DNA of 64,000 bases from Squalus acanthias (taxonomy: Eukaryota): assembly GCA_030390025.1 (NCBI GenBank), contig CM059431.1, positions 141,980,001 through 142,044,000 on the forward strand. Direction: 5' to 3'. Made by a program: the position numbers and the translations under genes. This document shows, piece by piece, positions 328 to 37,474 of this stretch. Each line of letters begins with the position of its first letter. The stretch's first letter is position 1. The notes below the pieces were generated by a model. It was not told the origin of the DNA. It was given only the letters and a program-made list of their open reading frames with translations, and did no database searches.

Positions 328-569
328 TTTCAACTTTTCCACCAAATCCTCGCGTGGAATTCTGCGTAGAGCACTCTTCATCACAGATAAAATCTTTTCT
401 TCGGCCCCAAACTTTCTCTTGATCACATCCTCTAGAATGCAAGCGTCAGCGTTCTCGATTTTCCCAGCCGGGATTCCATAATCTAACAATATGTGTTTGA
501 ACTTTTTCAGCTCATCGGCTGTCAGTTCCTCTAGAATATCTCCAACTCGAAACATGATCTCCTGACAAT
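328..569 (-). CDS. Pyrin-domain (PYD, death-fold) exon, gene copy 1
   Basis: MFRVGDILEELTADELKKFKHILLDYGIPAGKIENAD...LRRIPREDLVEKLK matches the PYD pattern LE.L...ELKKFK..L...IP.G.LE.AD. Pyrimidine tract with acceptors TAG (571-570) and CAG (563-562); donor AAA|GTAATT at 327. Confidence 0.85.
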
Positions 570-644
570 CTAATTAAATGAAAACAAAGGAGGTAAATTA
601 TACTGTAAGACTATGTTTCCGGTATATGATACAATGGCGTTTAA

Positions 645-905
645 GAACACAAGAAATAGTAGCAGAAGTAGGCCATACAGCCCCTCGAGCCTGCTCCGCC
701 ATTCAGTAAGATCATGGCTGATCTTCTACATTAACTTCACTTTACTTCCCTATCCCCATATCTCTTGATTAACCTGTTGTCGAAAATCTATCGATCTTAC
801 TCTTGAATATACTCATCGACTGAGCATCCACAGCCCTCTGGGGTAGAGAATTCCAAAGATTCACCACCCTTTGAGTGAAGAAATTCCTCCTCATCTCAGT
901 CCTAC
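645..905 (-). mobile_element. CR1 LINE 3' fragment (paralog ~33487-33748)
   Basis: Antisense CR1 3' UTR GTAGGCCATACAGCCCCTCGAGCCTGCTCCGCCATTC plus FFTQRVV-type coding end. Confidence 0.85.
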
Positions 906-1424
906 CTATGCAACTCATATTTTTGAAGACTATTAGGGTTTCTGAGGGTTATAACTTGTAATTAGCAGTTCAATATTTGTACTTCATGCAACAAAAATGT
1001 TTAGTTACAGCCCCAGGGCTCTCTTGCGTTGCTAACTCCCACTTATCATGGAAATCTGCAATTCATTAAGAGAGACTGGGATGGATCAGAAACTGACCTT
1101 TCACCCTCTGAGAATTGGGGTCAAATCAAGTACCAGAGAGAAGGGCTGAAGGGCTCCTCTCTCTGGTTGGACAATGGGCTGGGCAGAGAGTCATATACTG
1201 ATTCTTTATCCTGTGGTACTCGGGTTAAAAAACAGCCCCAGAGAGAGGAGCTAAAGTATTCGTCTCTCTGATGGGGAATTAGTCGGCACTGGGACAACAC
1301 TGACCTTTAACCCTTTGTGTCTTTTAGTCAAATCAACTCCACATACTGTGGATGAAGCCACTCCTTCTGTGGTCGGAAATAGATGGTCATTGTGTTGGAT
1401 CATTTCGGTACTTTAACAAATGCT

Positions 1425-1625
1425 ACGATAGTGTAGCGGTTAAAGCACGGGACATGCAATCCAGAGGTCTTGAGTTCATAATCCTACCAATGCAAGTTAT
1501 GAAACTGAATGTGATAAACCTGGCACCAACAATGTAACCATCAAAGCTGTCGTAAAAACCGTGATGTCAAAATCGAATTAGCTCAATAATTCCTGCAGTG
1601 AAGGGACCCTGCTACCACCAACCTA
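1425..1625 (+). mobile_element. Degenerate tRNA-derived SINE (paralog ~34270-34470)
   Basis: A-box TAGTGTAGCGG and B-box-like GAGTTCATAATCC followed by a non-tRNA body. Confidence 0.55.
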
Positions 1626-1784
1626 TGTGCCGGCAAGCGATGCCAGTCCCGGGATGAACAGCAACAGGAGTCTTGCCTGTGTTGCATCCCGAGACCAAAA
1701 GCTGTAACAATTCAAGAGTAAAGATACATGGTCCAACAGTAATGGACTGGGAAGTCACTAAGTTCGAACAGAGAGGAAATGCAA

Positions 1785-2120
1785 GCTTCAGCACACAACA
1801 GCAAAGTAAATGACCAGTTCATCTGTTTGAGCCATGCTGGTTGAGGGATAAATATTAGCTGGGATGCCTTGAAAAACACTCATATTTCCTCTTCCAATAG
1901 TGCCGTGGGGTCTTTCACGTCCACCTCAGATGCTATCGGGGGAGTATGTTTAAAGTCTCAGCAGAAAATCGACACCTCCGAAAGTGCAGCAGTGCCTCAG
2001 TATCAGCACTGCGAGTGTCGGCATAGATTTCGTGCTCCAGTCTTTGTGGGGGCGGGGGGGTATTGAACTTATGACATTCTGATACAGCGGTGAGATTTAC
2101 TGCCCACTGAGCCACAGCTG
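1785..2120 (-). mobile_element. SacSINE1-like DeuSINE (paralog ~34625-34962)
   Basis: Reverse complement has tRNA head CAGCTGTGGCTCAGTGGG and Deu-domain sequence similar to 31475-31885. Confidence 0.7.
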
Positions 2121-2139
2121 CAACCTCCTAGATCCCTTG

Positions 2140-3360: not shown

Positions 3361-3569
3361 ATGAATGGATGACAAGGCCACAATAAAATAAAGGCTCACT
3401 GTTAAGCATGGTCTGTTTGTAATCTGTGCTGTTTAAATTGGAAAGATTTCCTATTGTCTTAGGACCGAATTATTTTTTAGTGCGGAGTACAAGGTGCAAA
3501 GACCCGATAGAGCTCCTTCCGGCTCCTGTGTTCTAAATTAATCAGGCTGCGATATTTAAAGATCTCCTT

Positions 3570-4612: not shown

Positions 4613-4624
4613 TTTTAACGCCAT
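4613..4624 (-). CDS. Putative first coding exon (M-A-L-K) of PYD gene copy 1
   Basis: GGA-ATG-GCG-TTA-AAA|GTAAGT: strong Kozak, consensus donor, phase 0. In frame with the CAG acceptor of the PYD exon (MALK-EIMFRVGDIL); conserved in copy 2. Confidence 0.6.
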
Positions 4625-16140: not shown

Positions 16141-17526
16141 GACGCAACATGTCACGTTCCAGAAGTTACATATCTGATGTCACACTACAGATGTCACACT
16201 GCTGATGTCATACTACTGATGTCACTCTCCAGATGTCACACTCATAATGTCATACTTCGTATCTCGCAATCCAGATGTCACCCTCCAGATATTAAACTTC
16301 AACTTTCACACTCATGATGTCAAACTCCTGATGTCACACTCCTGATGTCGTACTCCTGATATTACACTCCAGATGTCATACGCTACATGTCACCTTCCAG
16401 AAAGTACATACCTGGAGTCACACTACAGACATCACACTCCAGATGCGAAAATACAGATGTCACGTTCCAGGTGGTGCACACAAGATGTCACACTCCAGCG
16501 CTCACTCTCCTGATGAAACGCTCCAGATGTCACACAGCTTAATTGCACTCCAGATTTCACACTGCAGATGGCACATAACAGATGTCACACTCCAGCTCTC
16601 ACACTCCAGCTCTCACACTCCTGTTGACTAACTCCAGATGGCGCACTGCTGAAGTCACAATCCAGATTTCACACTTCAGTTGTCAGACCACTGATGACAC
16701 ACTCCAGATCTCTTACTCCAGATCTCTCACACCATTTGCCACACTCTGGATGTCACAATACAGTTGTCAGACAACAGAGGTCAGATTCCAGATTTCAGAA
16801 TCCAGATGTCACACTGCTGATGTCACACTATTGATGTCACACTGCTGATGTCGCATTACTGATGTCACACGACTGATGTCACACTTCTTATCTCGCAATC
16901 CAGATGTGACACTCATAATGACACACTTCTTATCACAAACTCCATCTCTCGCACTCCTGATGACACACTCCAGATGTCACAATGCTGAAGTCACACGCCA
17001 GATTTTACACTCCAGCTGTCAGACCACTGATGACACACTCCAGATGTGAGAATAAAAATGTCAAGTTCTGATGGTACACTCAGGATCTCACATTCCAGAT
17101 CTCACACTATTGATACCACACAGCAGAGCTCACACTCCAGGTATCACACTCCTGATGAAACTTTTCGCAATTATGAAGGCACACTCCAGATCTTGCACTC
17201 CAACTGTCAGACCCCTGGTGGCACACTCCAGATGTCACACTCCTGATAATACTCTCCAGATGTCATACTCAAAATTTCAGGTTCAAGAACGTACATACCT
17301 GGTATCACACTACATTTGTCACACTCCAGATGTTACAATACAGATGTCACATTCCAGTTCCCATACTGCTGATGTCACACAGCAGATATCACAATCCAGC
17401 TCTCAAAATCCTGATGACATACTTCAATTGTCACTCAGCTGACGTCACACTTCAGATAGAGCAATCCTGTTGTCAGACACCTGATTTCGCACTATAGGTG
17501 CCTCACTGCTGATGTCACACTCCAGA
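16141..17526 (+). repeat. 14-bp satellite block 3
   Basis: Resumes the satellite register interrupted at 14390 (CCTGATTTCA|GACGCAAC, compare ~13200). Confidence 0.93.
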
Positions 17527-17545
17527 AACCGTCACAGAATCAAAT

Positions 17546-17870
17546 ACAGGAGTAGGATCATCACAAACCACTACAGGAGTAGGATTATCACAAACCACTA
17601 CAGGAGTAGAATCATCATAGACCACTACAGGAGTAGAATCATCACAAACCACTACAGGAGTAGAATCATCATAGACCACTACAGGAGTGGAATCATCACA
17701 AACCACTACAGGAGTAGGATCATCACAGACCACTACAGGAGTAGAATCATCACAGACCACTACAGGAGTAGAATCATCACAAACCACTACAGGAGTAGAA
17801 TCATCACAGACCACTACAGGAGTAGAATCATCACAGACCACTACAGGTGGAGAATCATCACAAACAACTA
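17546..17870 (+). repeat. 27-bp minisatellite (CCACTACAGGAGTAGAATCATCACAGA), ~12 units
   Basis: Highly homogeneous tandem units. Confidence 0.95.
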
Positions 17871-18057
17871 CACGCAAGAAGCTCGACGCTATCCAGGACA
17901 AAGCAATCCACTTGATCGGGTGCAGATCCACCATCTACACATCCTCCTCTTCCACCTTTGGCGCACCTTGCCTGCAGTGTGTACTGTGGAATGACAGCGT
18001 TCTGATTGCGTGAAATATCTGTTTGAGGAAGATTCAGCATAATCTTTGAGCACTCAC

Positions 18058-18199
18058 CTGAAGGTGCGTAATTCATTTCGATTTGCTCACTCTGTAGTAG
18101 GACCTGTTGCTGAGGAGCTCTGTCTTTGGGCCTGTTTGGTGATTTCAAAGTATAAAGTTGTGTCGAATTCTTCTTCTGACCGTCAGGTGCATCGTTACA
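18058..18199 (-). CDS. Putative linker exon of PYD gene copy 2 (CNDAPDGQKKNSTQLYTLKSPNRPKDRAPQQQVLLQSEQIEMNYAPS)
   Basis: Acceptor TCCTTATCTTTGCAG|, donor CAG|GTGAGT, 142 nt, open frame; phase-0 start matches the phase-0 end of PYD exon 33171. Confidence 0.7.
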
Positions 18200-18434
18200 C
18201 TGCAAAGATAAGGACATCAGCGAATCTCAGTACTGTACCACTGGAATTGCACATGTGATCACAAGGACGTGTGAAGGGTCTCGAGTCAATATTGAGACTC
18301 CCAGACTGTAATCCATCATTCATGTTCCTCTGGTATGTCTACCCTGCCGGTGGAATGGAGTTTAGGATGTTGGCTCTCTGAGTAGGATTATGTCAGTCCG
18401 ACTCGTCTGAGGCCTTTCCAACTTCTAGCAGCAG

Positions 18435-18720
18435 CAACTTTAATTTATATCGCGCCTTAAACGTAGTAAAAACGTCCCAATAGGGTTCACAGAGGGGAAA
18501 TGACACCGAGAGAAAGAAGCAGCCATTAGAAACACTAATCAAGCAATCATTGGGTTTTAAGGAGAGCCTTAAAGGAGAAGAGACAGAGAGAGGTGGGGAG
18601 GCTTAGGGTGAGGGGGGAGAGATTTCAGAGCTTAGGGCCTTGGCAGTGAAGGCACGCCCGCCAATGGTGGCGAAAAGGGAGTGGGGATGCACAAGAGGCC
18701 AGAATTGGAGGAACGGAGAG
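18435..18720 (-). mobile_element. L2-like LINE 3' fragment
   Basis: Antisense TTTATATCGCGCCTT tail and GAGCTTAGGGCC...GAAGGCACG end segment. Confidence 0.6.
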
Positions 18721-18889
18721 TTGAGCTGGATACAGGGCTGGAACCCCCAGATGTTGACGAGGAGGCCTTTGGAGCTTCAGCAAGACTGAGATTGTCAGAC
18801 ACTCAGTCCTGAAGAGGTGCCTGGGTCTTTGGCGATGGGCCCGTCCATTTTGACATTGCTTATTGAATTCAATATGACAACTAGTCATA

Positions 18890-19050
18890 ATACAAAAGCA
18901 AAATACTACGGATGCTGGAAATCTGAAAAAAACCCAGAAAATGCTGGAAATACTCAGCAGGCCAGGCAGCACATGTGGAGAGAGAAACAGAGTTAATGGT
19001 TCAGGTCGATGATTTTCCGTCAGAACTGGTAGATGTGAGAGAAGAACATA
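18890..19050 (-). mobile_element. Penelope-like terminal (pLTR) fragment with decayed hammerhead-like motif
   Basis: GATGCTGGAAATCTG...CTCAGCAGGCCAGGCAGCA; antisense TTCTGACGG...GACCTGAACC. Confidence 0.6.
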
Positions 19051-19603
19051 GTCTATACTTCCTGCTCCCTTTGCTATTCTGCTGTAACCATCTACACCCA
19101 CTCTGGACAAAGCGTATCTCTTGCACTATCTCAACTCGCATGCATTGCTGAGGTGCGGATTCGGTCTGCATCATCGGAAGTAAACCCACGAGGACAAAGA
19201 TGGGGCGAAACTGCATTAAACGCAATCGCTGTTTGTGGTACTTTACAGCAAGTTCCCTCTTTGAACGTCTCCCCTCCGCGATGGTCTGTTTCTAGCTCCC
19301 AAACTGCAACTTAGCTAAGTCGTTTTCGGTTGTCCCGATTATTATAAAAAAGGATATAGAGGCTCTGGAGAAGGTTAAAAAAAGATTTTCAAGTATGATA
19401 GCAGAAATGAGAGGGAAAGAATATCAGGAAAGAATGAACAGGCTGGGTCTCTTTTCTCTTGAAAAGTGAATGTTGAGGGGTAGCCAAATAGAGGTCTTTA
19501 AAATTATGAAAGCTTTGATAGAGTGGTTACAGAGAGAATGCTTCCACTTGTGGGGAAGAGCATAACTGGAGGCCATAAATATAAGATAGTCACCAAGAAA
19601 TCC

Positions 19604-20822
19604 TGATGTGGAGATGCCGGCGTTGGACTGGGGTGGACAAAAATGAGAAGTCGCACAACACCAGGTTATAGTCCACCAGATTTATTTAATTTTACAAGCT
19701 TTCAGAGCTATTCGCTCCTTCCTCAGGTAGGGTAGCAGTGAGAGAATCTCCCAGAATTCACAATATACACACAGAAAAAATCTATTCAAATCTTTCCCTA
19801 CATCAAAGACACACTAAGAGCACAGCCAAGACAATGAGATGTGTCCCAGGGGGTCCAACGTGTCAAAACACCTGCTGGCTGCATATCCTGTCAATTTGTG
19901 TTGGTTCTTGTGTTAGTCTTTTTAAAAAAAAACACCTGGAAAGACCGGCCATGATGTCAAGTCACGTTCTGTATCGTGACATGAACCCGATATCGCGATT
20001 GATGCCATCCTCATGAGTGCGGAACTTGGCTATCAGTTTCTGCTCTATGATTTTGCGCTGTCGTGTATCCCGAAGGCCGCCTTGGAGAACGCTTACCCGC
20101 AGATCCGAGGCTGAATGCCCCTGGCTGCTGAAGTGTTCCCCGACTGGGAGGCAACCCTGCTGCCTGGCGATTGTTTCGCGGTGTCTGTTGATATGTTGTC
20201 TCAGTGTCTGCATGGTCTCGCCGATGTACCATGCTCTGGAGCATCCTTTACTGCAACGTATCAGGTAGACAACGTTGGCCGAGTCACATGAGTATGTACC
20301 GTGTACCTGGTGGGTAGTGTCCTCACGTGTGATGATGGTATCTGTGTCCATGATTTGGCATGTCTTGCAGAGGTTGCCGTGGCAGGGTTGTGTGGTGTCG
20401 TGGTTGCTGTTCTCCTGAAAGATGGGTAATCTGCTGCGAACAATGGTACTTTTGAGGTTAGGCGGCTGCTTGAAGGCGAGTAGTGGAGGCGTGGGGATGG
20501 CCTTAGCAAGGTGTTCATCGTCATCGATGACATGTTGAAGGCTGCGAAGAACATGGCGTAGTTTTTCCGCTCCGGGGAAGTACTGGACGACGTAGGGTAC
20601 TCTGTTGGTTGTGTCCCGTGTCCGTCTTCTGAGGAGGTCTATGCGGTTTTTCGCTGTGGCCCTTCGGAACTGTCGATCGACGAGTCGAGCGTCATATCCC
20701 GTTCTTACGAGGGCGTCTTTCAGTGTCCGTAGGTGTCCATCGCGTTCCTCCTCGTCTGAGCAGATCCTGTGTATTCGCAGGGCTTGTCCATAGGGGACGG
20801 CTTCTTTAACGTGGTTAGGGTT
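19604..20822 (-). mobile_element. Young 5'-truncated Penelope-like element (end of RT plus GIY-YIG endonuclease)
   Basis: Open frame 20819-19962: PYGQALRIHRICS...CHGNLCKTC...NVVYLIRCSKGC..WYIGET...EQKLIAKF..GIN; CpG-rich. Confidence 0.95.
19655..19730 (-). ncRNA. Hammerhead-ribozyme-like motif in the Penelope terminus
   Basis: CUGAGGA-AGGAGC(GAAUA)GCUCU-GAAA-GCUUG on the minus strand. Confidence 0.5.
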
Positions 20823-20825
20823 ATA

Positions 20826-21042
20826 CTGGTAAGTATTACGTTAGTAGAAGTTGTAAGAAGTGAAATTTAGTTCAAGATTTTATTTTACCGCAGAAAATTA
20901 AAATTGTAGCTTGCAGAAGCTGACTGCCAGTGGCAGTTCACTGTCAGTCAGCTGTAAGTGTTTGTCTTGAATCGGCGCTAATCACCAGGAGCAGGGGAGC
21001 TGAGTCAGCACTTGTAAATTGGGTGAGGCTCCTTGAGTATAA
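20826..21042 (+). repeat. ~217-bp copy of 21535-21753 located inside the Penelope target-site duplication
   Basis: Near-identical direct repeat CTGGTAAGTATTACG...CCTTGAGTATAA. Confidence 0.93.
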
Positions 21043-24000
21043 CGAAGAAATCCAATAGGGAATTGAGAAGAAACTTCTTTACCCAGAGGGTGGTGAGAAT
21101 GTAGAACTCGCTGCCACAGGAAGTGGTTGAAGCGAATAGTGTAGATCGATTTAAGAGGAGGCTAATTAAATACATGAGGGAGAAGGGAATAGAGGGTTAT
21201 GTTGATAGGTTAGATGGGGAAAGACGGGTGGAGGCTCGAGTGTAGCATAAACGCCGGCATGGACGGGTTGAGCTGAATGGCCTGTTTCTGTGCCGTATAT
21301 TCCATGTAATCCGATGCAATAAGGCTGAAGAAATGAAAGGGCACCGAAAGAGGGAGCAGTCGGAAAATATCATAAACCACAATTCATTGATGGTTCAAAA
21401 GACTAGCGAGAAATTGCTCACGGAGAAGACAAAATCCCTACTTAGAAGCAAAGAGCCAACTGCACAGATCGGGATTAAACGGAGTGGACTTGAACAGAGT
21501 GCTTTATTTGGGAATTTGGGGAAAGTGGGCATTTCTGGTAAGTATTACGTTAGTCGAAGTTGTAAGAAGTGAAATTTAGTTCAAGATTTTCATTTTACCG
21601 CAGAAATTTAAAAATTGTAGCTTGCAGAAGCTGACTGCCAGTGGCAGTTCACTGTCAGTCAGCTGTAAGTGTTTGTCTTGAATCGGCGCTAATCACCAGG
21701 AGCAGGGGAGCTGAGTCAGCACTTGGAAATTGGGTGAGGCTCCTTGAGTATAAAAATAAATATTTCTGCAGAGCACAGAGCGATCTGCACAGAGCGGGAT
21801 TAAACGGTGTGGACTGGATCAGAGTGTTTTTTGGGGAATTTGGAAAACGTGGGAATTCGGAGAAGAGATGGATGGAGTTGATGCTATTTGCCTATACTAA
21901 TTGGACTGATTTATGTTACAGGTAGATATTTAATTTCAATACCCTTAACTTAATCTAGATCAAGTAAGTAGTCAAGAAACTACACTGTAAACTAAGTTAA
22001 CTAAATACAAATTTAAATACATTTAATTAATTAAAACAAGGTCATATAGGGTTGGCCGTTCAGGTGGTTTGCCGCAACTGCAGCACGTGGGAGTTTGTGG
22101 AGAGAATTGTGATCCCGGATAACCAGGTGTGCAGTAAGTGCTTGCATCTTGAGGAACTTCAGCTCAGAGTTTTGAGCTGGATTTTGAGGTTCAGACAATG
22201 CGGGGCATCAGGAAGGGGAAGAGTTACCTGGACACTTTGATCCTTAGTGTTACAGGTCTGGTTAATGGTCAGGGACAGAAGGGTGCGACTGCAACTCAGG
22301 CAGGTAAGGGGACCACAGTTGCAGTGCTGGATGAGCCTCATCCTTTGCCCTTGTCCAACAGGTATGACTTTCTTGCTGCCTGTGTGGATTAGGGAAAAGC
22401 CTGCAGGATTGATGAGCAGGCTGACAACGGCACCATGATGCAGGAGGTCATTCAAGTGAGGGGAATGAAAGGTAATGTAGTTGTGGTAAGTGACAGTATA
22501 GTCAGGGTGATAGATACTGTTCTCTGGAGCCGCGACAGAGAGTTCCATAGATTGTGTTGCCTGCCCCTTGCCAGATTAAAACACATCTCCTAGTGGCTGG
22601 ATAAGAACATGGAGTGGAAGGGGGAGGAACCTGGCTTCATGGTCCAACGAAGTAGTTATAACTACGGATGAGGTTCAGGTGAGGGTGTTTTGAGGAGCTA
22701 GGATCCAAATTAAAAAGCAGAACCTCAAAGGTAATAATTTCTGCATTGTTGCCTGAGTTACACACAAATTGGTATCGGGACAAACAGATTAGAGGTTTAA
22801 ATTCGTGGCTCAAAGAGTGGTGTGGGAGGAAGGGTTTTCATTTCATGGGTCACTGGCACCAGTACTGGGGAAAGAGGGAGCTGTTCCTTTGGGACGAGCT
22901 CCACTTAAACCGTGCTGGAACTAGTGCCTTGGTGAACCAATTAATTAGGGCAATAGATAGGGCTTTAAACTAATGAAGTTGGGGGGAGGGGGGAGGATTC
23001 AGAGTAAATTTAAAATCAACGAGAGAAATGTCAAGGTTCTAGAGCAGAGTAGAGTTTTAGGTAAAAATAACTAGAGTGGGTCAGGAGGGGACAGAGAGAC
23101 TTACAGAAGTAATAAGGCATCAGTGACTAAGGTTACATCAGGGGAAAATAGAAATAAGTCAAAGCTAAAGGTATTATATCTGACTGCACAAAGCATTCCC
23201 AACAAAATAGATGAATTAATAGTGCAGATAGAAATTAACAGGTTTGATCTTATAGGCATAACGGAGACGTGGTTGCAAAGTAGCCAAGCTTGGGAACTAA
23301 ATATTCCAGGATACTTAACTTTTAGAAAATATGTGCAAAATGTAGAACGAGGAGGGGTAGCCGTGATAATAAAGGATATGATAAAGTCAGTGGAGAGAAA
23401 GGATCTTAGCTCCGAAAATCATGTAGTATAATCAGTTTGGATGTAGCTATGAAACATCAACGGGCAGAAAACATGGGTGGGAGTTGATTATAGGCCCCCA
23501 AACAGTTTTTGCAATGAAGGGCAGTGCATAAATCAGGAAATTAGAGGCGCATGTAACAATGGTAATACAGTAATCATGAGGGACTTTAATCTACATATAG
23601 ACTGGTCAAACCAAATTTGCAGTAATAGTGTGGAGGACGTATGCATGGAATGTATGCAAGATAGTTTTCTAGATCAGTATGTGGAGGAACCAATTAGTGA
23701 GCAGGCTATTTTCGATCTAGTGTTGTGCAATGAGAAAGGGTCAATTAATAACATTTTAGCAAAGGGGCCTTTAGGAAATAGTGACCATAATAAGCTAGAA
23801 TTTTATATTGATCTTGAAAGCGATTGAGTTAAATCAAAAACTAGGTTCTTAAATCTAAACGAAGCAGGTATGAGGGGCGAGTTGTCTAAGGCAGATTGGG
23901 AAACAACATTAAAAGGTATGATGATAGATAAGCAATGCTTAGCATCTAAATAATTAATACATAACTTACAACAAATATACATTCCTTTAAGGCACAAAAA

Positions 24001-24567
24001 TACCGCAGAAAAAGTGGTCCAACCTTGCCTAACCAGAGATGTTAAAGATCGTATTAGATCAAAGGAAGAGCCTTATAATTTTGCCAAAAGGAGTAGTAAG
24101 CCTGAGGATTGGGAGGATTTTAGAATTCAGCAAAGGAGGATGAAGAATTTGATAAAGAAATGGAAAATAGAATATGAGAGTAAACTAGTGAGAGACATAA
24201 AAACAAACTGTAAAATCTTCTGTACGTATGTAAAAAGGAAAAGATTAGCGAAGTAAATGTGGGTCCCTTAAAGGCTGAGACGGGAGAAGTTATAATGGGG
24301 AATAAGGAAATGGCAGAGAAATTAAACAAATATATTGTGTCTGTCTGCATGGAAGAAGACGCAAAAAACTTTCCGGAAATAGTGGAGAACCAAGGATCTC
24401 GTGAGAATGAGAAACTGAAAGAAATTAGTTTGAGCAAAAAAAATGTACTCGAGAAATTAATGGGACTGATAGCCCATACATCCCCTGGACCTGATAGCCT
24501 ACATGCTAGGGTTTCGACAGAGATGGCTATACAGATAGTGGATGCATTGGTTGTCCTTTTCCAAAAT

Positions 24568-26800
24568 GGATGTCAAGGGATATACAAGAATGGATTAGGA
24601 AAAAAAGGGAGGCTTTTGGCAGATACAAAGGACTAAAAACTATGGAAGCCCTAGAGGAGTATAGAAAGTGCAGCGGGGTACTTAAAAAAGAAATTAGGAA
24701 GGCAAAGAGGGGGCATGAAAAAACACTGGCAGGCAAAATAAAGGAAAATCCCAAGGTGTTTTATAAGTATATTATGGGCAAGTGGATAACCAATGAAAGA
24801 GTAGTGCCCATTAGGGACCAGAGTGGCAATCTCTGTGTAGAGCCAAAAGATATAGGTGAGGTTTTAAATGAACATTTTGCATCTGTGTTCACTATGGAAA
24901 AGGACATTGTAGGCATAGAAATCAGGCAGGCGGATTGTGATATACTGAAACAAATTAGTATTGAGAGGTTGGAGGTACTAGCGGTTTTAGCGGGCTCAAA
25001 AGTGGATAAATCCTCAGGCCCAGACGAGATGGAACCCAGGATGATGTGTGAGGCAAGGGAGCAGATTGCAGGGGCTCTGACACAAATTTTCAGAACCTTT
25101 CTGGCCACAGGGAGGTGCCTGAGGACTGGAGAACAGCTAATGTATTACCATTATTCAAGAAGGGTAGTAGGGATAAACCAGTGAATTACAGGCCAGTGAG
25201 CCTAACATCAGTGCTAGGGAAATTATTGGAAAACATTCTGAGGGGCAGAAATAGACTCCACTTGGAGAGGCAAGGATTAATCAAGGATTGTCAGCATGGC
25301 TTTGTCAGGGGGGAGGTCATGTCTAACAAATTTGATTGAATTTTTCGAGGGGGTGACTTAGTGTGTGGATGAGGATAGTGCAGTTGATGTAGTCTACATG
25401 GACTTCAGTAAGGCTTTCGCAAAGTCCCGCATGGGAGACTGGTCAAGAAGGTAAGAGCCCATGGGATCCAGGGCAATTTGGCACATTGGATCCAAAATTG
25501 GCTTAGTGGCAGGAGGCAGAGGGTGATGGTAGAAGGTTGTTTTTGTGACTGGATGATTGGTGTCCCGTGGTGTACCGCAGGGATCGGTGCTGGGTCCCTT
25601 GCTGTTTGTAGTGTGCATTAATGATTTCGATATGAATGTGGGAGATATGATCAGTAAGTTCGCAGATGACACCAAAATTGTTGGAGTGGTAAATAGCGAG
25701 GAAGGAAGCCTTAGGCTAGAGGACGATATAGACTGGATGGTCAGATGGGCAGAACAGTGGCAAATGGAATTTAACCCTGAAAAGTGTGAGGTGATGCATT
25801 TTGGGAGGACTAACAAGGCAAGAAAATGCACAATGAACGGTAGGACCCACGGAGGGACAGAGGATCAGAGGGACCTTGGTGTGCATGTACATAGATCCCT
25901 GAAGGCAGCAGGACAGGTAGATCAGGTGGTTAAGAAGGCATATGGGATACTTGCTTTCATTAGCCGAGGCATAGAATATAAGAGCAGGGAGCTTATGATG
26001 GAGCTGTACAAAATGATAGTTAGGCCACAGCTGGAATACTGTGTGCAGTTCTGGTTGCCACCCTATAGGAAGGATGTGATTACATTAGAGTGGGTGCAGA
26101 AGAGATTAACCATGATGTTACCTGGGCTGGAGCTTTTCAGCTATGAAGAGAGACTGGACATGCTGGGGTTGTTTTCCTTAGAGCAGAGAAGGCTGAGGGG
26201 GACCTGATTGAGGTGTACAAAATTATGAGGGGCATAGATAGGGTAGATAGAAAGGAACTTTTAGTCTTAGTAGAGGGGTGAATAACCAGGGGGCATAGTT
26301 TCAAGGTAAGGGGCAGGAGGTTTAGAGGGGATTTGAGTAAAATCGTTTTCACCCAATCAGGTCCCCCTCAGCCTTCTCTGCTCTAAGGAAAACAACCCCA
26401 GCATGTCCAGTCTCTCTTCATAGCTGAAAAGCTCCAGCCCAGGTAACATCCTGGTTAATCTCCTCTGCACCCACTCCAATGTATTCACATCCTTCCTATA
26501 GGGTGGCAATCAGAACTGCACACAGTATTCCAGCTGTGGCCTAACTATCATTTTGTACAGCTCCATCATAAGCTCCCTGGTTGGAATCTGGAACCCACTG
26601 TCTAAAAGGGTGGTAGAGGCAGGAACCCTCACAACATTCGAGAAGCATTTAGATGAACACATGAAACGCCAAAGCATACAAGGCTACGGACCAATTGCTG
26701 GAAAGTGTGAATAGAATAGATCGGGTTTGATGACCGGCGCAGAAACGATGGGCCGAAGGGCCTCTTTCTGTGCTGTATAACTCTATGACTCTGTGACTCT
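24568..26800 (+). mobile_element. Nested CR1 of a different subfamily, AAAAT target-site duplication
   Basis: AAAAT at 24563-24567 and 26801-26805; CTCTATGACTCT tail; RT ORF 25557-26207. Confidence 0.92.
26354..26579 (-). repeat. Inverted duplication of 25985-26210
   Basis: Reverse-complement match with about 5 mismatches. Confidence 0.95.
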
Positions 26801-28199
26801 AAAATTCATAGATTCTGGAACTGTTCCCGTGGATTTGAAGGCAGCAAATGTAACCCCACTATTGAAGAAAGGAGGGAGAGAGAAAACGGTGTATTGCAGA
26901 CCAGTTACCTGACATCAGTAGCAGGGAAAATGCTAGAATCTATTATTAAGGACGTGGTAACAGGGCTCTTAGAAAATAATAATAGGATTGGGCAGAGTCA
27001 ACCCGGATTTATGAAAGGGAAATCGTGTTTGACAAATCAGTTGGAAATTTTTCATGTTGTAACTAGCATAACACATAAGGAGGAACCAGGGAATATGGTG
27101 TATTTGGATTTTCTGAGGCATTCGATAAGGTGTTACACAAGAGGTTATTAATCAAAATTAGGGCTCATGGGATTGGGGGTAATGTATTAGCATGAATTAA
27201 GGATTGGTTAACGGACAGAAAACAGAGAGTAACAATAACCGGGTATATTTTCGGGTTGGCAGGCTGTATCTAGTGGGGTACCGCAAGGATCAGTGCTTGG
27301 GCCTCAGCTATTCAGAAACTACATCAATGATTTGAATGAGGGGACCAAATGTAATATATCCAAGTTTGCTGATGATACAAAGTTAGGTGGGAATGTAAGT
27401 TGTGAGGAGTATACAAGGAGGCTTCAATGGGATATAAACAGGGTGAGTGGGCAAGAACGTGGCAAATGTCATAAAATGTGGAGAAATGTGAAGTTATTCA
27501 CTTTGGTAGGAAATCAAGAAAAAGAGATTATTTTTAAATGGTGAGAGATTGGGAAATGTTGGTGTTCAGAGGGACTTGGGTGTCCTTGTACACGAATCAA
27601 TGAAAGTTAACATGCAGCTGCAGGAAGCAATTAGGAAAGCAAATGGCATGTTGGACTTTATTACAAGAGGATTTGAGTATAAGATTAAAGACGTCTTACT
27701 GCAATTATATAGGGCACTGGTGAGACCACACCTGGAGTATTGTGTACAGTTTTGGTCTCATTACCTAAGGAAGGATATACTTGCTATCGAGGGAGTGCAA
27801 CGAAGAATCAGCAGACTGGTTCCTGGGATGGGTGATTGTCCTATGGAGAGAGATTGAATAGACTAGGCCTCTATTCTTTAGTGCTTAGAAGAATGAGAGG
27901 TGATCTCATTGAAACATACAAAGTTAGTACTTGACTTGACAGGGTACATGCAGAGAGGATGTTTGCCCTTATTGAGGAGTCCAGAATCAGACATCACAGT
28001 CTCAGAATAAGGGGTCACAATTTAGGACTGAGATGAGGAGAAATTTATTCACTCAGAGGGTGCTGAATCTTTGGAATTCTCTAACCCAGAGAGGGCTGTG
28101 GACTCTCAATCGTTGAGTATATTCAAGACAGAGATTGATTGAATTTTGAATATGAATGGAATTAAGGGATATGGGAATATTGCAGGAAGGTGGACCTGA

Positions 28200-31010
28200 G
28201 AACATAAGAACATAAGAAGTAGGAGCAGGAGTAGGCGATACGACCCTTCGGGCCTGCACCGCCATTCAATAGGAACATGGCTGATCCGAACCTAGACTCA
28301 CGTCCACTTCCCTGCCCGCTCCCCATAACCCTTAATTTCCTTATCAGCTAGGAAACTGTCTATATCAGTTTTAAATTTATTTAATGTCGCAGCTTCCACA
28401 GCTCTCACAGGAAGCAAATTCCATAGATTTATTACCCTCTGAGTGAAGAAGATTCTCTTCATCTCAGTTTTGAAACGGCAGCCCCTTATTCTAAGATTAT
28501 GCCCCCTAGTTCTAGTCTCACCCATCAGTAAAAACATCTTCCCCGCATCCACCCGATCAAGCCCTCTCACAATCTTAAATGTTTCGATAAGATCGCCTCT
28601 CATTCTTCTGTATTCCAATGAGTGGAGGCCCAACCTACTCAACCTTTCCTCTTAAGTCAACCCCCTCATCTCCGGAATCAACCGACTGAAACTTCTCTGA
28701 ACTGCCTCGAGAGCAAGTATATATTTTCTTAAATATGGAAACCAAAACTGTACGCAGTATTCCAGTTGTGGCCTCACCAGTACCTTGTATAACTGAAGCA
28801 AGACTTCCCTGCTTTTATACTCCATTCCCCTTGCAATAAAAGCCAAGATTCCATTGGCCTTCCTGATCACCTGCTGTACCTGCATACTAACCTTCTGTGT
28901 TTCATGCACCAGGACCCCCAGATCCCTTTGTACTGTAGCACTTTGCAGTTTCTTTCCATTGAGATAATAACTTGCTCTTTGATTTTTTCTGCCAAAGTGC
29001 ATAACCTCACACTTTCCAGAATTATATTCCATCTGCCAAATTTATGCCGACTCACTTAGCCTGGCTATGTCCTTTTGCAGGTTTTTTATGTCCTCCTCAC
29101 TCACTGCTTTCTCTCTCATCTTTGTATCGTCTGCAAACTTGGATACATTGCACTTGGTCCCCTCCTCCAAATCGTTAATATGGATTGTAAAGAGTTGGGA
29201 TCCCAGCACTGACCCCTGCGGAACACCACTAGTTACTGATTGCCAACCCGAGAAAGAACCATGTATCCCAACACTCTGTTTTCTGTTAGATAGCCAATCT
29301 TCCACCCATGCCAGTATATTACCCCCATTCCCGTGATTTTTTATCTTGTGCAGTAATCTTTTGTGTGGTACCTTGTCAAATGCCTTTTGGAAGTCCAAAT
29401 ACACCACATCCACTGATTCCCCTTTATCCACCTTGTTTGTTACATCCTCAAAGAATTCGAGCAAATTTCTCCTTCATAAAACCATTCTGACTCTGTCCGA
29501 TTAAGTTATGCTTATCCAAATGTCCTGTTATTGCTTCCTTAATAATGGACTTCAACATTTTACCAGCCACAGATGTTAGGCTAACTGGTCTATAGTTTCC
29601 GGCCTTTTGTCTACCTCCCTTTTTAAATAAGGGTGTTACATTAGCAGTTTTCCAATCTGCTGGGACTATTCCTGAATCCAGGGAGTTTTGGAAAATTACC
29701 ACCAATGCATCCGCAATCCCTACCGCAACTTCTCTCAAGACCCAAGGATGTAAGCCACCAGGACCAGGGGATGTATCCGCCTTTAGTCCCATTATCTTAC
29801 CGAGTACCATCTCCATAGTGATTTTAATCGTGTTTAGCTTCTCCCCCCCTATAGCCCCTTATTTGTCCAGTGTTGGGATATTTTCAGTGTCCTCTACTGT
29901 AAAGACTGATACAAAATATTTGTTCAGCGTATTTGCCATCTCCATGTTCCCCATTACTATTTCCCGGTCTCGTCCTCTAAGGGTCCAACATTCACTTTAG
30001 CCACCCTTTTTCTTTTCATATAACTGTAAAAACTCTTGCTATCTGTTTTTATATGTTTTGCTAGTTTACTTTCATAATCTATCTTCCCTTTCTTAATTAA
30101 TCTTTTACTTATTCTTTGCTGGTTTTTAAATGCTTCCCAATCTTCTATCCTCCCACTAGATTTGGCTACTTTAAAAGCCCTTGTTTTTAGTCGGATACTA
30201 TCCTTTATTACTTTACTTAGCCACGGATGGCTATCTTTTCTTTTACGCCCCTTTTTCCTCAGTGGAATATATTTTCTTGAAAGTTGTGAAATACCTCCTT
30301 GAATGTACACCACTGCTCCTGTACCGTCTTACACCTTAATTTATTTTCCCAGTCCACTTTAGTCAACTCTGCTCTCATACCTTCATACTCTCCTTTATTT
30401 AGGCTTAGTACGCTGTTTTGAGATCCAACTCTCTCACCCTCCAACTGAATTTGGAATTCAACCATGTTATGGTCACTCATTCCAAGGGGATCCTTTACTA
30501 GGATATTTTTTGTTAATCCTGTCTCATTACACAGGACCAGATCTAAGATGTCCTGCCCCCTGGTTGGTTCAGTGACATACTGCTCAATTAACCCGTCCCT
30601 AATGCACTCTATGAACTCCTCCTCAAGGCTGCCCTGCCCAATTTGATTTGTCCAGTCAATATGAAAGTTAAAATCTCCCATGATTATAGCTGTTCCCTTA
30701 TTACAAGCCCCAACTATTTCCTGATTAATACTCCGACCAATTGAGTTGCAACTGTTAGGAGGCCTATAGACTACACCCACTAGTGACGTTTTCCCTTTAT
30801 TATTCCTTATCTCCACCCAAACTGTTTCACTATCCTGATCCTTTGACCCAATATAATTTCTCACTATTGCAGTGATTTCATCCTTTATTAACAAAGCCAC
30901 ACCACCTCCCTTTCCTTCCTGTCTGTCCTTCCTAATAGTCAAATACACCTGGATGTTTAGTTCCCAGTCATGGTCACCTTGCAGCCATGTTTCTGTATTG
31001 GCCAACAGAT
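28200..31010 (-). mobile_element. Nested antisense CR1 (most of ORF2) in the host 3' UTR
   Basis: ORFs 30259-31005 (endonuclease) through 28298-28642; AACATAAGAACATAAG tail. Confidence 0.95.
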
Positions 31011-31134
31011 CAACATTGGAGATGATGTAGAAGATCAGACATGATCTTATTGAATGGCGGAGTAGGCTCGAAGGGCCGAGTGGCTTTCTTTTACTCCTAT
31101 TTCTTATATTGTTATGTTGTTAAGATCGCGGTGA

Positions 31135-31470
31135 AATCATAGAATGATACAGCACAGAAGGAGACGATTCGGCCCATCGTGTCCGTGTCGGCTCTTTGAA
31201 AGAGCTAACCCATCAGTCTCACACACTGCTCTTTTCCGCTAGCACAAAATTACTTTATCCTTTTAAAGTATTTATCCAAATTCCTTTTGAAAGTTCCCAT
31301 TGAATCTGCTTCTACGGCCCTTTCAGGCAGTGCATTTCAGACCATAAGAACTCATTGTGTAAAAATTAGGGCTGCTCATCACCCCTTCTGTTTGTTTTAC
31401 CAATTGCCTTAAATCTGTGCCTTTAGTTTCTCGACGCACCTGCCAATATAAACCCTTTCTCCTTCTTTAT
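31135..31470 (-). mobile_element. CR1 3' fragment
   Basis: Antisense tail CATAGAATGATACAGCACAGAAGGAG..ATTCGGCCCATC. Confidence 0.8.
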
Positions 31471-31474
31471 TCTA

Positions 31475-31885
31475 GGGATCAGCCATAGCTCAGTGTATTG
31501 CCCTCACGAGTCAGTAGGTCGTGGGTTCAGGTCCCGCTACAGAAACTTGAAGCACTGCACCAGCAGAGGTGCCGTACTTCAGATGAGATGTTAAAACGAG
31601 GTCACATCTGCCCTCTCGGAGGGATGTAAAATATCCCATGGTTATTTCGAAGTAGAGCAGGGGAATTCTCCCATGTTCCCTGGGCCATTATTTATCCAGC
31701 AACCAACATTACTGAACACAGATTATCTGGTCAATATCACATTGCTGTTTGTGGGTGCTTGCTGTGCAAATCGCCTGTTACGTTCCGTGCCACATTACAA
31801 CAGTGACTACATTTCATAAAGTATTTCATTGTCCGTAAAGCACTTTGGCAAGCCCCGAGGTTGTGAAAGGTGCTATATAAATGCT
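31475..31885 (+). mobile_element. SacSINE1-like DeuSINE
   Basis: tRNA head (TAGCTCAGT, GGTTCAGGTCC), Deu domain (GATGAGATGTTAAAACGAGG), tail GGTGCTATATAAATGC. Confidence 0.8.
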
Positions 31886-32224
31886 TTATCAGAAACCATC
31901 GTAATTTTGAACACGTCTATTAAATGTTCACGTAACCTTTTCTGCGCTAAATAATTCCTCTGGGATTCTCCCACTAGGGCCTCTGTAATTTTGGCAGGAA
32001 TTCCGTTGTGTCCGCACAGGCCATTCTTGGGAACCATCCGGATTTGAAGGCTGTATGTGTTAGCCAAGAATGCCTGACGGCTAATCATGGTCCTTGCTTT
32101 TGATTTGCTCTTGTGGTGTGGCGACACTGGAAGGGCAGCATATGTTATTCTTACCCAGTTGCCCTGAGAGCTTTAAGTATATTATACTGGCCTTGCCGGC
32201 ATCGATCCATCCCAAGAATGATTC

Positions 32225-32985
32225 GGTGGCACCGCACACGTGCCGGGCAATGAACATCTCCAAAAATAGTGAGCCTAACAATCTCCCCTTGACATTCAAT
32301 GTCATTACCATCGCCCAATTCGCCCACCATCAATAGCGTTTGGAGCAACTTTGGCCAGAATCTCAACCGCACCAGCCACATAAATGCAATGGTACTGGAG
32401 CAGGTGAGAGACGTATTATTCTGTGGCGAGTTTCTCACCTCCTGTTTCCACAAAGCCTTTTCACCAACTACAAGTCCCAAGCCAGGAGTGTGCTGCAATA
32501 CTCTCCAATTGTCTGTATGAGATGCAGCTCCAACAACACTCAAGAATCTCGACATCATCGAGAATACAGTCCGCTTGATGAGCACTCCATCCATCATATT
32601 AATAATTCACTCCCTCCACCACCGTCGCAACGTGGCTGCTGTGAGTAGCAGCTACAAAATTGACTGCAGAAACTCGCCAAGGATTTTTCGACAGAAGCTT
32701 TCAATCCACGAACTCTATCACCGAGAAGGACAAGGACAGCAGACGTATTTGAACACCATCAACTCCAATTCCTCTCCAAGTTACACACCATCCTGACTTG
32801 GAAATATATCACCGTTGCTTCATCGTCGCTTTGTCAAAATCCTGGAACTCCCTCACTAACAGCACTGTGGGATTGTCTCACTATATGGACTGCAGCGGTT
32901 CAAGATGGTGGCTCACCACGACCTTCTCAAGGGCAATTAGGGATGGTCAATAAATGGTGGCTTTGCCAGCGAGGCTGACATCAGC
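32225..32985 (+). mobile_element. CR1/L2-clade LINE 3' fragment
   Basis: YKSQARSVLQYSP and HSLHHRR coding remnants; 3' end as at 1-145. Confidence 0.8.
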
Positions 32986-33170
32986 AGAATATTTTTTTAA
33001 AACATAACATTCGATATTATGCTGAACTTTTAACTCCAACGAGCAGCATTTTTCATCCTCTGTTGTTCCTCTACAGTTGACCATCCCAAAGCCAAAGTCT
33101 TCTAATTCCTAATTGTTTGTCGTGACTGGGAGACCGAGAAAGTATCGCAAAAGAGGAAAATGGAAATTAC

Positions 33171-33412
33171 CTGCAACTTTTCCAGCAAATCCTCGTGAGG
33201 AATTCTGCGTAGAGCACTCTTAATCACAGATAAAATCTTTTCTTCGGCCCCAAACTTTCTCTTGATCACATCCTCTAGAATGCAACCGTCAGCGTTCTCT
33301 ATTTTCCCAGCCGGGATTCCATAATCTAACAATATGTGTTTGAACTTTTTCAGCTCATCGGCTGTCAGTTCCTCTAGAATATCTCCAACTCGAAACATGA
33401 TCTCCTGACAAT
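33171..33412 (-). CDS. PYD exon, gene copy 2
   Basis: Intact frame, 5 aa differences from copy 1, donor CAG|GTAATT. Confidence 0.85.
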
Positions 33413-35577
33413 CTAATTAAATGAAAACAAAGGAGATGTATTATATTGTAAGACTATGTTTCTGGTATATGATACAATGGCGTTTAAGAACACAAGAAAC
33501 AACAGCAGGAGTAGGCCATACATCCCCTCGAGCCTGCTCCGCCATTCAGTAAGATCATGGCTGATCTTCTACATTAACTTCACTTTACTTCCCTATCCCC
33601 ATATCTCTTGATTAACTTGTTGTCGAAAATCTATCGATCTTACTCTTGAATATACTCATCGACTGAGCATCCACAGCCTTCTGGGGTTGAGAATTCCAAA
33701 GATTCACCACCCTTTGAGAGAAGAAATTCCTCCTCATCTCAGTCCTAAGTATGCAACTCATTTTTTTGGAGACTATTAGGGTTTCTGAGGGTTATAACTT
33801 GTAATTTGCAGTTCAATATTTGTACTTCATGCAACAAAAATGTTTAGTTACAGCCCTAGGGCTCTCTTGCGTTGTTAACTCCCAGTTATCATGGAAATCT
33901 GCAATTCATTAAGAGAGACTGGGATGGATAAGAAACTGACCTTTCACCCTCTGAGAATTGGGGTCAAGTCAAGTACCAGAGAGAAGGGCTGAAGGGCTCC
34001 TCTCTCTGGTTGGACAATGGGCTGGGCAGAGAGCCATATACTGATTTTTTATACTGTGGTACTCGGGTTAAAAAACAACCCCAGAGAGACGAGCTAAAGT
34101 ATTCGTCTCTCTGATGGGGAATTAGTAGTCAGTGGGACAACACTGACCTTTAACCCTTTGGGTCTTTTAATCAAATCAACTCCACACACTGTGGATGAAG
34201 CCACTCCTTCTGTGGTCGGAAATAGATGGTCATTGTGTTGGATCATTTCGGTACTTTAACAAATGCTACGATAGTGTAGCGGTTAAAGCACGGGACTCGC
34301 AATGCAGAGGTCTTGAGTTCATAATCCTACCAATGCAAGTTATGAAGCTGAATGTGATAAACCTGTCACCAACAATGTAACCATCAAAGCTGTCGTAAAA
34401 ACCGTGGTGTCAAAATCGAATTAGCTCAATAATTCCAACAGGGAAGGGACCCTGCTACCACCAACCTATGTGTCGGCAAGCGATGCCAGTCCCGGGATGA
34501 ACAGCAACAGGAGTCTTGCCTGTGTTGCATCCCGAGACAAAAAGCTGTAACAATTCAAGAGTAAAGATACATGGTCCAACAGGTATGGACTGGGAGGTCA
34601 CTAAGTTCGAACAGAGAGGAAATGCAAGCTACAGTACACAACAGCAAAGTAAATGACCAGTTCATCTGTTTGAGCGATGCTGGTTGAGGGATAAATATTA
34701 GCTAGGATGCCTGGAAAAACACTACTATTTCCTCTTCCAATAGTGCCGTGGGGTCCTTTACGTCCACCTCAGAGGCTATACGGGGAGTATGTTTAAAGTC
34801 TCAGCAGAAAATCGACACCTCTGAAAGTGCAGCAGTGCCTCAGTATCAGCACTGCGAGTGTCGGCATTGATTTCGTGCTCCAGTCTTTGTGTGGGCGGGG
34901 GGGATTGAACTTATGACATTCTGATTCAGCGGTGAGAATTGCTACCCACTGAGCCACAGCTGCAACCTACTAGCTCCCTTGCTTGTTGTGGTATATATCA
35001 ATGATTTAGACTGCAATGTAGGGGGCTTGATTAACAAGTTTGCAAAAGATACAAAAATTGTCCGTGTGGTTGGTTATGAAGAAGAAAGCTGCAGACTGAC
35101 GGAAGATATCACTGGACTGGTCAGGTGGGCAGACAAGTGGCAAAGGGATATCAATCTGGGGAAGTGTGAGTTAATGCATTTGGGGAGGAATAGCAAAGCA
35201 AGGGAATACACAATAAATGGTAGGATAACGGGAAGTGTAGAGGAACTGAGGGACCTTGGAGTGCATGTCCACAAATCCCTGAATGTAGCAGGACAGGTAG
35301 ATAAGGTGGTTAAGAAGGCATACGCGATACTTTCCTTTATTACTCGAGGGAGAGAATATAAGAGCGGTATAAAGTGTATAAAACTTAGTTAGACCACAGC
35401 TAGAATAGAGCGATCAGTTCTGGTGACCTCATTGCAGGAAAGATGTAACTGCAACAGAGAGGGTTTCAGAGAAGATTTACGAGGATGTTGCCAGAACAGG
35501 AGAATATTAAATATGAGGAAAGATTGGATAGGATGTGGCTGAGGAGAGACTTAATTGAGGTGCATATAATTATGAGG

Positions 35578-35889
35578 GGCCTAGATAGAGTGGATAGGAA
35601 GGGCCTAGATAGAGTGGATAGGAAAGGCCTCGATAGAATGGATAGGAAGGGGCTAGATAGAGTGGATAGGAAGGGCCTAGATAGAATGGATAGGAAGGTC
35701 CTAGATAGAGTGGATAGGAAGGTCCTAGATAGAGTGAATAGGAAGGTCCCAGATAGAGTGGATAGGAAGATCCTAGATAGAGTGAATAGGAAGGTCCTAG
35801 ATAGAGTGGATAGGAAGGTCCTAGATATAGTTAATAGGAAGGTCCTAGATAGAGTGGATAGGAAGGGCCTAGATAGAGTGGATAATAAG
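35578..35889 (+). repeat. 24-bp minisatellite x13 (paralog of 2735-3046)
   Basis: 13 (G/V/I)LDRVDRK-type units in ORF 35485-36033. Confidence 0.95.
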
Positions 35890-37462
35890 GACCTACTTCC
35901 CTTTGCAGAGACGTCAATAACCAGGGGGCATATATTTAAAGTAATCGGTAAAAGGATCAGAGGGGAGTTGAGGAAACATTTTTTCACCCAGAGGGTGGTG
36001 GGGTCTGCAACTCACTGCCTGAAAGGGTGGTAGAGGCAGAAACCCTCATCGCATTTAAAATGTACTTGAATATGCACTTGAAGATCCATAACCTGCAAGG
36101 CTATGGACCAAGAGCTGGAAAGTAGGATTAGGCTGGATAGTTCGTTTTCGGCCGGCACAGACACGATGGGCCGAATGGCCTCCGTCTGCACCGTAAGGTT
36201 ATATGAATGGATGACAAGGCCACAATAAAATAAAGGCTCACTGTTAAGCATGGTCTGTTTGCAATCTGTGCTGTTTAAATTGGAAAGATTTCCTATTGTC
36301 TTAGGACCGAATTATTTTTTAGTGCGGAGTACAAGGTGCAACGACCCGATAGAGCTCCTTCCGGCTCCTGTGTTCTAAATGAATCAGGCTGCGATATTTA
36401 AAGATCTCCTTTGTGTGTGTGTGAGTGTGTGAGTGAGTGAGTGAGAGACAGAGAGACAGAGATAGAGAATGCATATGTATCATTGAGTGACTCTGTGTAT
36501 GTGTGTGTGCATGTGTGTGTGTGTGTGTGTGAGAGAGATAACGCGTGTGTATTTGTGAGTTACTCTGAGTGTGTGAGAGAGAGAGGCACACACACACACA
36601 CAGACAGAGACAAAGGATGCATATGTACCTCACTGAATAACTTTAGTGAGTGTGTGTGTGTAAGAGAGCGATAAAATTACACAAAGAGACAGAATGCGTG
36701 TGTATATCAGTAAGTGAATGATTGTATGTGTGAGAGACAGAGATATTGGAAGCGAGTGACAGTCAGTGTTTGTGTCTGTGAGAGAGACGTAGAGAAAGTG
36801 AATGTGTGTGTATATCAGAGTGACTGTTATGTATATCTGTGTATGTAAGAGAGACAGAGAGACTGACAGAGAGAGAAAGATAAAGGATGCTTCTGTATAT
36901 CAGTGATTGATTCTGAGTGAGCATGTGTGCGTATTTCTGTGGAAGAGAAGCAGCAGGATGTTGAAATCTAACCTTTAACCATCGACAACTTCTACACTCC
37001 TATACAGACTGGTATTTCACAAGTTAAATTGACAAAGACCCGTATCCCTTATCAGACGTTGCTTCAGACACAGCAAGTGCTGCCTACGTGCGAATTGCAA
37101 AAACGTCTTATGCATATCGAGCCAAAGTTGGAGGAAGTGACTTGCCCACAAACGCAAACCGTTTGCTTCTGTCTCTGCTAGTTGCAGCATTTTGCTTTTA
37201 CTTTGTATTAGCTCATGCACACAGATGTTGAGAACCCTTCAGTTTTATTTCACAAGAACGTTTATTCAAACCCGCTGTGTTTTGATTAAAGTGGCATTGA
37301 AGTTGAAATCGCCCGAACCTCCACTTGATGATTATGGGGTCTCGAGCAGTTTTGAAATTTTAGTTTTGATTGATTCTCCGCGTTAGGTTTCATTTTTCAA
37401 CTTTGCTCGCCGTCTAATTTCTACCGAGAACCGGTGTCCGTGGATGGAGAAATGGGACTTAC

Positions 37463-37474
37463 TTTTAACGCCAT
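37463..37474 (-). CDS. Putative first coding exon (MALK), copy 2
   Basis: ATGGCGTTAAAA|GTAAGT; Kozak -3 base is C. Confidence 0.55.

Follow-up and report, generated by a model that had tools for sequence, protein, structure and literature searches.

We analysed a 64,000-nucleotide stretch of the genome of Squalus acanthias (C7:141,980,001-142,044,000, where C7 is contig CM059431.1), hereafter the window, and found in it two members of a tandem array of three copies of a pyrin domain (PYD) gene. The copies are cut off after the exon following the PYD, the linker. If transcribed, these copies may produce soluble PYD decoys, a reading to which we assign a probability of about 0.45. A preliminary description of this DNA had recognized a real feature and drawn its anatomy correctly, but had looked for the wrong parent gene. 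Positions without a contig name refer to the window, and negative positions lie to the left of its start.

The three exons proposed for copy 2 were all confirmed on the minus strand at the positions and in the compatible phases given by the preliminary description. The first-exon candidate (37463..37474, -) begins with an ATG, reads MALK, and ends in a phase-0 donor (AAA/GTAAGT); it may be coding or form part of an upstream frame. The pyrin-domain exon (33171..33412, -) has two acceptors, TAG at 33412, which gives phase 1 in the PYD frame, and CAG at 33404 (phase 0), and its 3' end at 33171 is followed by the donor CAG/GTAATT. MALK stays in frame solely via the acceptor at 33404, through which the three exons join in frame. 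Since the PYD exons of both window copies carry their own internal in-frame ATG (33398 in copy 2 and 555 in copy 1), MALK need not be coding. The linker exon (18058..18199, -; 142 nt, phase 0-1) matched no Pfam family in a Pfam scan, and it ends in a consensus donor (CAG/GTGAGT) with no downstream exon of its own. The claim that copy 2 has no effector exon also held; open reading frames (ORFs) of at least 110 aa between the copy 2 linker and copy 1 looked by eye like pieces of long interspersed nuclear elements (LINEs), satellites or chance frames.

The assignment to the PYD family stood up when the exons were compared with the PYRIN and DED profiles. Both window PYD exons exceeded the Pfam PYRIN cut-off (PF02758, 22.9 bits), with 44.2 bits for copy 1 (E 2.2e-11) and 39.6 bits for copy 2 (E 6.2e-10), whereas their DED scores of 27.8 and 27.2 were under the DED cut-off of 35.9. 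AlphaFold2 with a seven-row alignment returned an all-helical PYD with five helices called, albeit as a low-confidence model (mean pLDDT 52.8, pTM 0.37). The top solved-structure matches of the PYD were the NLRP6 PYD and the caspase-8 prodomain, and in the ESM Atlas it matched PYD/DED clusters at 0.91-0.92. Searched against longer database proteins, a single PYD matched none of 154 candidates. A PYD profile matched one of 1661 proteins of similar length, a 'caspase b-like' protein of 87 aa from herring (E 3e-4), and one of 7996 longer proteins (E 0.76). These searches are weak evidence that the protein databases may hold no close relative of this PYD.

The window records a young partial tandem duplication of this PYD gene, as had been proposed. 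The block of copy 2 that comprises the upstream region, first exon and PYD (32844..41481) is matched at window 1-7855 in two segments, 1-4814 versus 32844-37663 with 96.2% identity and 4814-7855 versus 38409-41481 with 92.7% identity. Copy 1 has a first-exon candidate (4613..4624, -; MALK) and a pyrin-domain exon (328..569, -) with acceptors TAG at 569 (phase 1) and CAG at 561. Its PYD donor is weakened to AAA/GTAATT (score 2.5 vs 5.6; all splice scores come from a rough matrix). The intron and linker region of copy 2 (17873..35579) has its copy 1 counterpart at window -13296 to +2737, with 95.3-96.9% identity. The preliminary description had suggested looking to the left for the copy 1 linker and downstream effector exons; the linker was located at -12970 to -13111, but no effector exons came after it. 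Copy 1, regarded there as a parent with a remaining gene body, is the same truncated unit, consisting of a first exon, PYD and linker without continuation. Satellite sequence comes next, and then a third copy, in which a first exon and PYD are present, the linker is missing and the internal ATG has been lost. Two insertions are found in copy 2 only: a dispersed repeat some 190 nt before the ATG (37663..38409), seen as a gap in the duplication alignment and matching a sequence 237 kb away at 91.6%, and a second one in the PYD-linker intron (19603..21042), which has no counterpart when copy 2 is aligned with copy 1 and which contains a 292-aa ORF (19962-20840).

A genome search with the PYD query yielded matches in eight of nine candidates, while the linker query matched in 6/6 and the first-exon block in 6/6, five of the latter adjoining a PYD exon. 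Five PYD exons are close to those of the window: the three of the window array and two in an inverted pair at C7:144.47-144.49 Mb, the first of which carries a stop and a frameshift. PYD exons are open in all three copies of the window array and in four of the five truncated copies overall. The third copy and its counterpart in the distant pair are the only truncated copies without a linker. Three further PYD exons are more distant, with 52-55% protein identity to those of the window. An orphan first-exon block without a PYD (C7:136399810-136400222, +) represents an older copy (89%). It sits upstream of a LIM gene (C7:136413434-136435104, +), which we take to be paxillin/leupaxin-like on the basis of its motifs. 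Human leupaxin adjoins the MS4A cluster. Derivation of the MALK exon from this gene at 136.41 Mb was considered and dropped, because an LD-motif exon belonging to the gene itself lies 13 kb farther along.

Satellites abound in the region, as would suit a mis-assembly in which the copies are haplotypes of one locus. However, the copies are 3-8% apart, they carry private insertions, and no N occurs in the three regions, which together make mis-assembly very improbable. Trees over 3.8 kb also contradict it: copies 1 and 2 form one group, and the third copy joins the second member of the distant pair, each at 100/100. When the orphan first-exon block was added as a sixth row, the support values were 85/86 and 100/100.

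The preliminary description placed a caspase, ASC or NLR parent left of the window, so that copy 1 would be a complete gene of this kind extending leftward. The herring protein as best profile match and the structural matches to the NLRP6 PYD and the caspase-8 prodomain are compatible with such a gene. However, the copy 1 unit stops after its linker, and no CARD or caspase match was found nearby: none of the 47 CARD matches (70 candidates) fell in C7:141.8-144.6 Mb or within 47 Mb on C7, and none of the 26 caspase matches (36 candidates) fell on C7, both match counts being lower bounds. ORFs of at least 230 aa in the 200 kb left of the window looked by eye like G-protein-coupled receptors (GPCRs), LINEs or satellites only, although no NACHT profile search was made, and 14 kb downstream of the third copy lies a GPCR gene that faces it. 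We consider this parentage largely refuted and hardly credible, and a complete relative of a different kind was found elsewhere.

This complete relative lies 2.36 Mb beyond the window, at 144.40 Mb (C7:144,401,861-144,424,498, +), and is a predicted PYD-MS4A fusion gene, MS4A proteins being CD20-like and four-pass. Its seven exons, with AG/GT at every junction shown, give an open frame of 274 residues plus a stop that runs from PYD through linker to four hydrophobic segments, denoted as transmembrane segments TM1-4. The PYD scores 52.3 bits with Pfam PYRIN, protein identity to the window copies is 55%, and the linker of 130 nt is homologous to the 142-nt linker of the window. Two paralogs of the fusion gene are broken, one by a stop in TM3 (C3741:108560-133219, -) and the other by several breaks (C7:144336277-144363719, -). 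After the linker, the three distant genes have in common a 53-nt phase 1-0 exon and then four hydrophobic exons. With nhmmer, the first-exon block of the truncated copies had no counterpart ahead of any of the three fusion-gene copies. We dropped 'MSGHA' as a candidate first exon of the fusion gene, as it was found in one of the three copies.

The four membrane exons of the fusion gene measure 114, 57, 102 and 135 nt and have phase-0 borders in the order and phase of MS4A genes. Hydropathy peaks of TM1-4 were 2.7, 1.3, 1.7 and 2.1, TM2 being weak. The TM1 exon (114 nt) has the sole strong pair of splice sites within the first 35 kb, its borders coincide with those of MS4A-type exons elsewhere in the genome, and a PWW-G motif closes TM1. 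In a single-exon Pfam scan, the only match of TM1 was CD20 (PF04103; positions 5-39, 16.2 bits, E 0.011, with a whole-domain cut-off of 27.9), and TM2-4 had no CD20 match; ordinary MS4A-type exons behaved alike, with one of six matching (E 0.0017). None of 110 ORFs below the C3741 linker exceeded a Pfam cut-off, and it was a weak CD20 match among them (E 0.0012) that led to TM1. Against a profile of three MS4A-type genes, whose exons we called ourselves, the fusion membrane part scored 31.8 bits, a score reached by none of 1000 shuffles (maximum 7.5) and none of 1000 within-exon shuffles (maximum 9.0). The ESM Atlas returned nothing for TM1. A 'SLSVAA' frame after TM1 was tried as TM2 and dropped for its poor acceptor and wrong phase; the 57-nt exon fits. 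A PYD precedes each of the three strong TM1 matches, and this co-occurrence, together with the exon phases, suggests that PYD and membrane exons belong to one transcript. For the copy 2 PYD exon no RNA source was listed, and on the fusion linker-to-TM1 stretch three RNA contig sets from the same species covered repeats alone and 0/3 exons; these results say nothing on expression. Beside the fusion genes we also noted an ordinary four-exon MS4A-type membrane region (C7:144259805-144264676, +) and a TM1 exon interrupted by a stop (C7:144240575, -).

Comparison with the fusion gene placed the truncation point. Intron sequence common to the window copies and the fusion gene is 75-76% identical around the PYD and 80-84% identical around the linker, and the two diverge about 185 bases past the linker at a 27-bp tandem repeat (17545..17872), where similarity ends. 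A degenerate 14-bp satellite (16176..17526) occupies the place of the missing MS4A exons, and no homolog of exon 4 or TM1-4 was found by blastn or profile search from -200 to +174 kb of the window. We infer that the copies probably derive from a fusion-type ancestor and that exons 4-7 were lost at the satellite junction. The same degenerate 14-bp satellite forms four arrays in the window (7857-9708, 12804-14390, 16176-17526 and 41682-42762); lying at the borders of duplicated units, such arrays possibly aided unequal crossing-over.

Because exon 4 is absent, the linker donor would be left unpaired. Reading past this orphan donor would give a predicted soluble protein of 195 aa, counted with MALK and ending at 17858, whose putative C-terminal tail consists of former intron (17858..18057, -; 66 codons to a TGA, within the ORF 17858-18226). 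Read-through at the PYD donor would be an alternative transcript end. The in-frame tail past the linker is open in all three truncated copies that have a linker, and in copies 1 and 2 the stand-alone frame runs uninterrupted as far as a stop. In these two copies, linker and tail would add 113 residues to the PYD, so the product would not be a PYD alone. By analogy with primate POP1-3, a soluble PYD-plus-tail might compete with the membrane-anchored PYD or with another PYD partner and thereby damp signalling.

A number of observations weigh against functional decoys. The nearest AATAAA/ATTAAA past the tail stop is 1.9 kb away in copy 2 and 3.5 kb away in copy 1, and one of the copy 2 insertions lies close to the presumed promoter. 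Parts of the family are impaired: a stop and a frameshift interrupt one sister copy, the internal ATG is gone from the third copy, the PYD donor of copy 1 is weak, and two of the three fusion-gene copies are broken. No PYD+CARD (ASC-like) gene was found in the 20-30 kb downstream of three other PYD exons of this genome. Between truncated and fusion PYDs, nonsynonymous divergence (dN) was about 0.34-0.35 and synonymous divergence (dS) 0.28-0.36, with no sign of purifying selection, and four of the truncated PYDs differ among themselves by 18 replacement and 3 silent changes. The PYD exon is as variable as its flank (21/234 vs 124/1358 columns). A neutral simulation (5000 runs) kept at least four of five exons intact in 35% of runs and all three exons of the array in 26%. 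The linker has 13 replacement changes and no silent one, a ratio that alone is not significant (p 0.085).

The copies may instead be non-functional debris, that is, PYD-MS4A fragments spread by segmental duplication in a repeat-rich GPCR/MS4A cluster and drifting since. A dN/dS of about 1 and intact frames within neutral expectation are in line with this, as are one dead copy, one without a linker and one orphan first exon without PYD at C7:136.40 Mb; several neighbouring GPCR copies are likewise split or frameshifted. However, the PYD exon has no gaps against the fusion gene, whereas 8 gaps fall within 683 columns of the neighbouring intron. Survival along the stem branch occurred in 18% of neutral simulations, although the stem gene may have been full-length at that time. 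In addition, variation is concentrated in the linker exon, which is more variable than its flank (13/141 vs 51/1314 columns, p 0.008, one of two such tests) and in which all changes are replacements. The selection data do not separate decoy from decay, and we regard decay as a serious contender that ranks close behind soluble decoys.

The orphan donors allow a different outcome, in which the array is one transcription unit and each donor is spliced to the TAG acceptor of the next copy. The resulting PYD-linker-PYD(-linker-PYD) proteins would act as multivalent seeds or strong decoys. The join from the linker, which ends in phase 1, to the TAG acceptor at 569 was part of the preliminary description, and it is indeed open, reading ...NYAPS-DCQEIMFRVGDIL... 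without a stop; a three-PYD join meets its first stop 22 codons inside the last intron. The linker donor has the consensus sequence, the TAG acceptor scores 4.2 compared with 0.7 for CAG, and no acceptor scoring at least 4.2 occurs in the first 12.9 kb below the copy 2 linker. We also counted in its favour that polyadenylation tends to be suppressed close to a strong donor without a partner. However, phases would agree by chance in one case out of three, and the TAG site is also present in the fusion gene and is therefore inherited rather than built for read-through. In the last 4.5 kb, 12 acceptors that score at least as high occur between 5111 and 2246, and the next interval has seven. Furthermore, the copy 1 PYD donor is weak, the first PYD of the sister pair is dead, and every copy retains its own first exon. 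Splicing across copies is thus unlikely in our view. An extended version, in which sharks have a membrane-anchored PYD-MS4A protein with soluble regulators and the array as one transcript gives a pre-linked oligomer of two or three PYDs that seeds or caps PYD filaments at the membrane and owes its origin solely to tandem duplication and an orphan donor, is improbable. For the emergence of multi-PYD proteins through read-through, the array is a case that lends itself to direct testing. No tandem pyrin domains occurred in the literature searched.

Apart from the PYD copies, the window contains a separate 5.7-kb tandem duplication (44875-55485, 92.9%) with 42-bp minisatellites, several copies of which are also present at 144.38-144.46 Mb. 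A broken rhodopsin-type GPCR gene occupies 60672-61596 (+) and flanks (7tm_1 E 0.0022), and it is one of about 11 related loci in the surroundings of the window, with 9 more close to the distant locus at 144 Mb.

The three other PYD exons of this genome belong to different gene contexts. A PYD exon at C15:86153233-86171934 (+) scores 56.8 bits with Pfam PYRIN. Downstream of it, at a distance of 11 kb, comes a HIN-domain exon that reaches 61.2 bits with Pfam HIN (cut-off 22.7) and has the AIM2 HIN as its best PDB match (E 5.8e-11), and possibly also a second OB-fold exon. This is a candidate AIM2/PYHIN-like gene. HIN/PYHIN proteins are described as mammal-only in passages of PMC3458909 and PMC13253634. 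One paper mentions PYHIN as well as cartilaginous fish. A shark PYD+HIN gene would bear on when DNA-sensing inflammasomes arose, possibly outweighing our main finding. At C28:27229594-27225233 (-), a PYD exon (66.9 bits) has a Death-domain exon 4 kb downstream (41.1 bits, cut-off 22.6), making it a candidate PYD-DD adaptor-like gene and a possible partner of the PYDs studied here. The PYD exon at C21:11857243 (-; 44.3 bits) has a 412-codon ORF without a Pfam family about 15 kb downstream and no CARD in the 20 kb downstream.

Titles and the starts of abstracts in the literature searched, which excludes supplements and subscription journals, contained no PYD-MS4A gene and no shark PYD-only genes. 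The closest functional parallel is with the primate proteins POP1/PYDC1, POP2/PYDC2 and POP3, which, like the window copies, are small, recently arisen and contain little beyond the PYD (PMC5465353, PMC5512670). POPs block PYD-PYD contacts with ASC or with sensors, according to a passage of PMC5465353, and PYD-only regulators are presented as recent primate inventions (PMC5465353, PMC5512670). If our favoured reading of soluble decoys is true, a cartilaginous fish would have an independent PYD-only set with the same decoy logic, arranged around a different, membrane-anchored signalling platform. Unlike POPs, the shark copies have a predicted 47-aa linker and tail, a probable origin in a membrane fusion gene, and five copies plus an orphan first exon. 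If the copies are dead, they would still record the fast birth and death of a fusion gene.

CARD16/17/18 originated as partial copies of CASP1. The window copies are likewise partial duplicates that retain a death-fold exon and have lost the effector part. However, the retained domain is a PYD rather than a CARD, and the complete relative is no caspase and lies 2.4 Mb away rather than adjacent. This relative resembles the MS4A/CD20-like family in its four hydrophobic exons, whose order and phase are those of MS4A genes, its PWW-G motif, and the ordinary MS4A-type genes 140-160 kb away. MS4A genes are present in cartilaginous fish according to passages of PMC2826416, which mention no death-fold fusion; the complete relative differs in its N-terminal PYD, reported there for no MS4A protein, and the window copies differ in lacking membrane exons. 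The mouse PYHIN locus (AIM2b, p208 and p213; passages of PMC3458909) also makes PYD products without an effector domain, through splice forms and genes, within an expanding immune cluster. The products there come from PYD-HIN sensors, whereas here the loss is at the level of the genome and concerns a four-pass membrane domain. Among these systems, the window array is a set of death-fold-only partial duplicates with an unusual parent.

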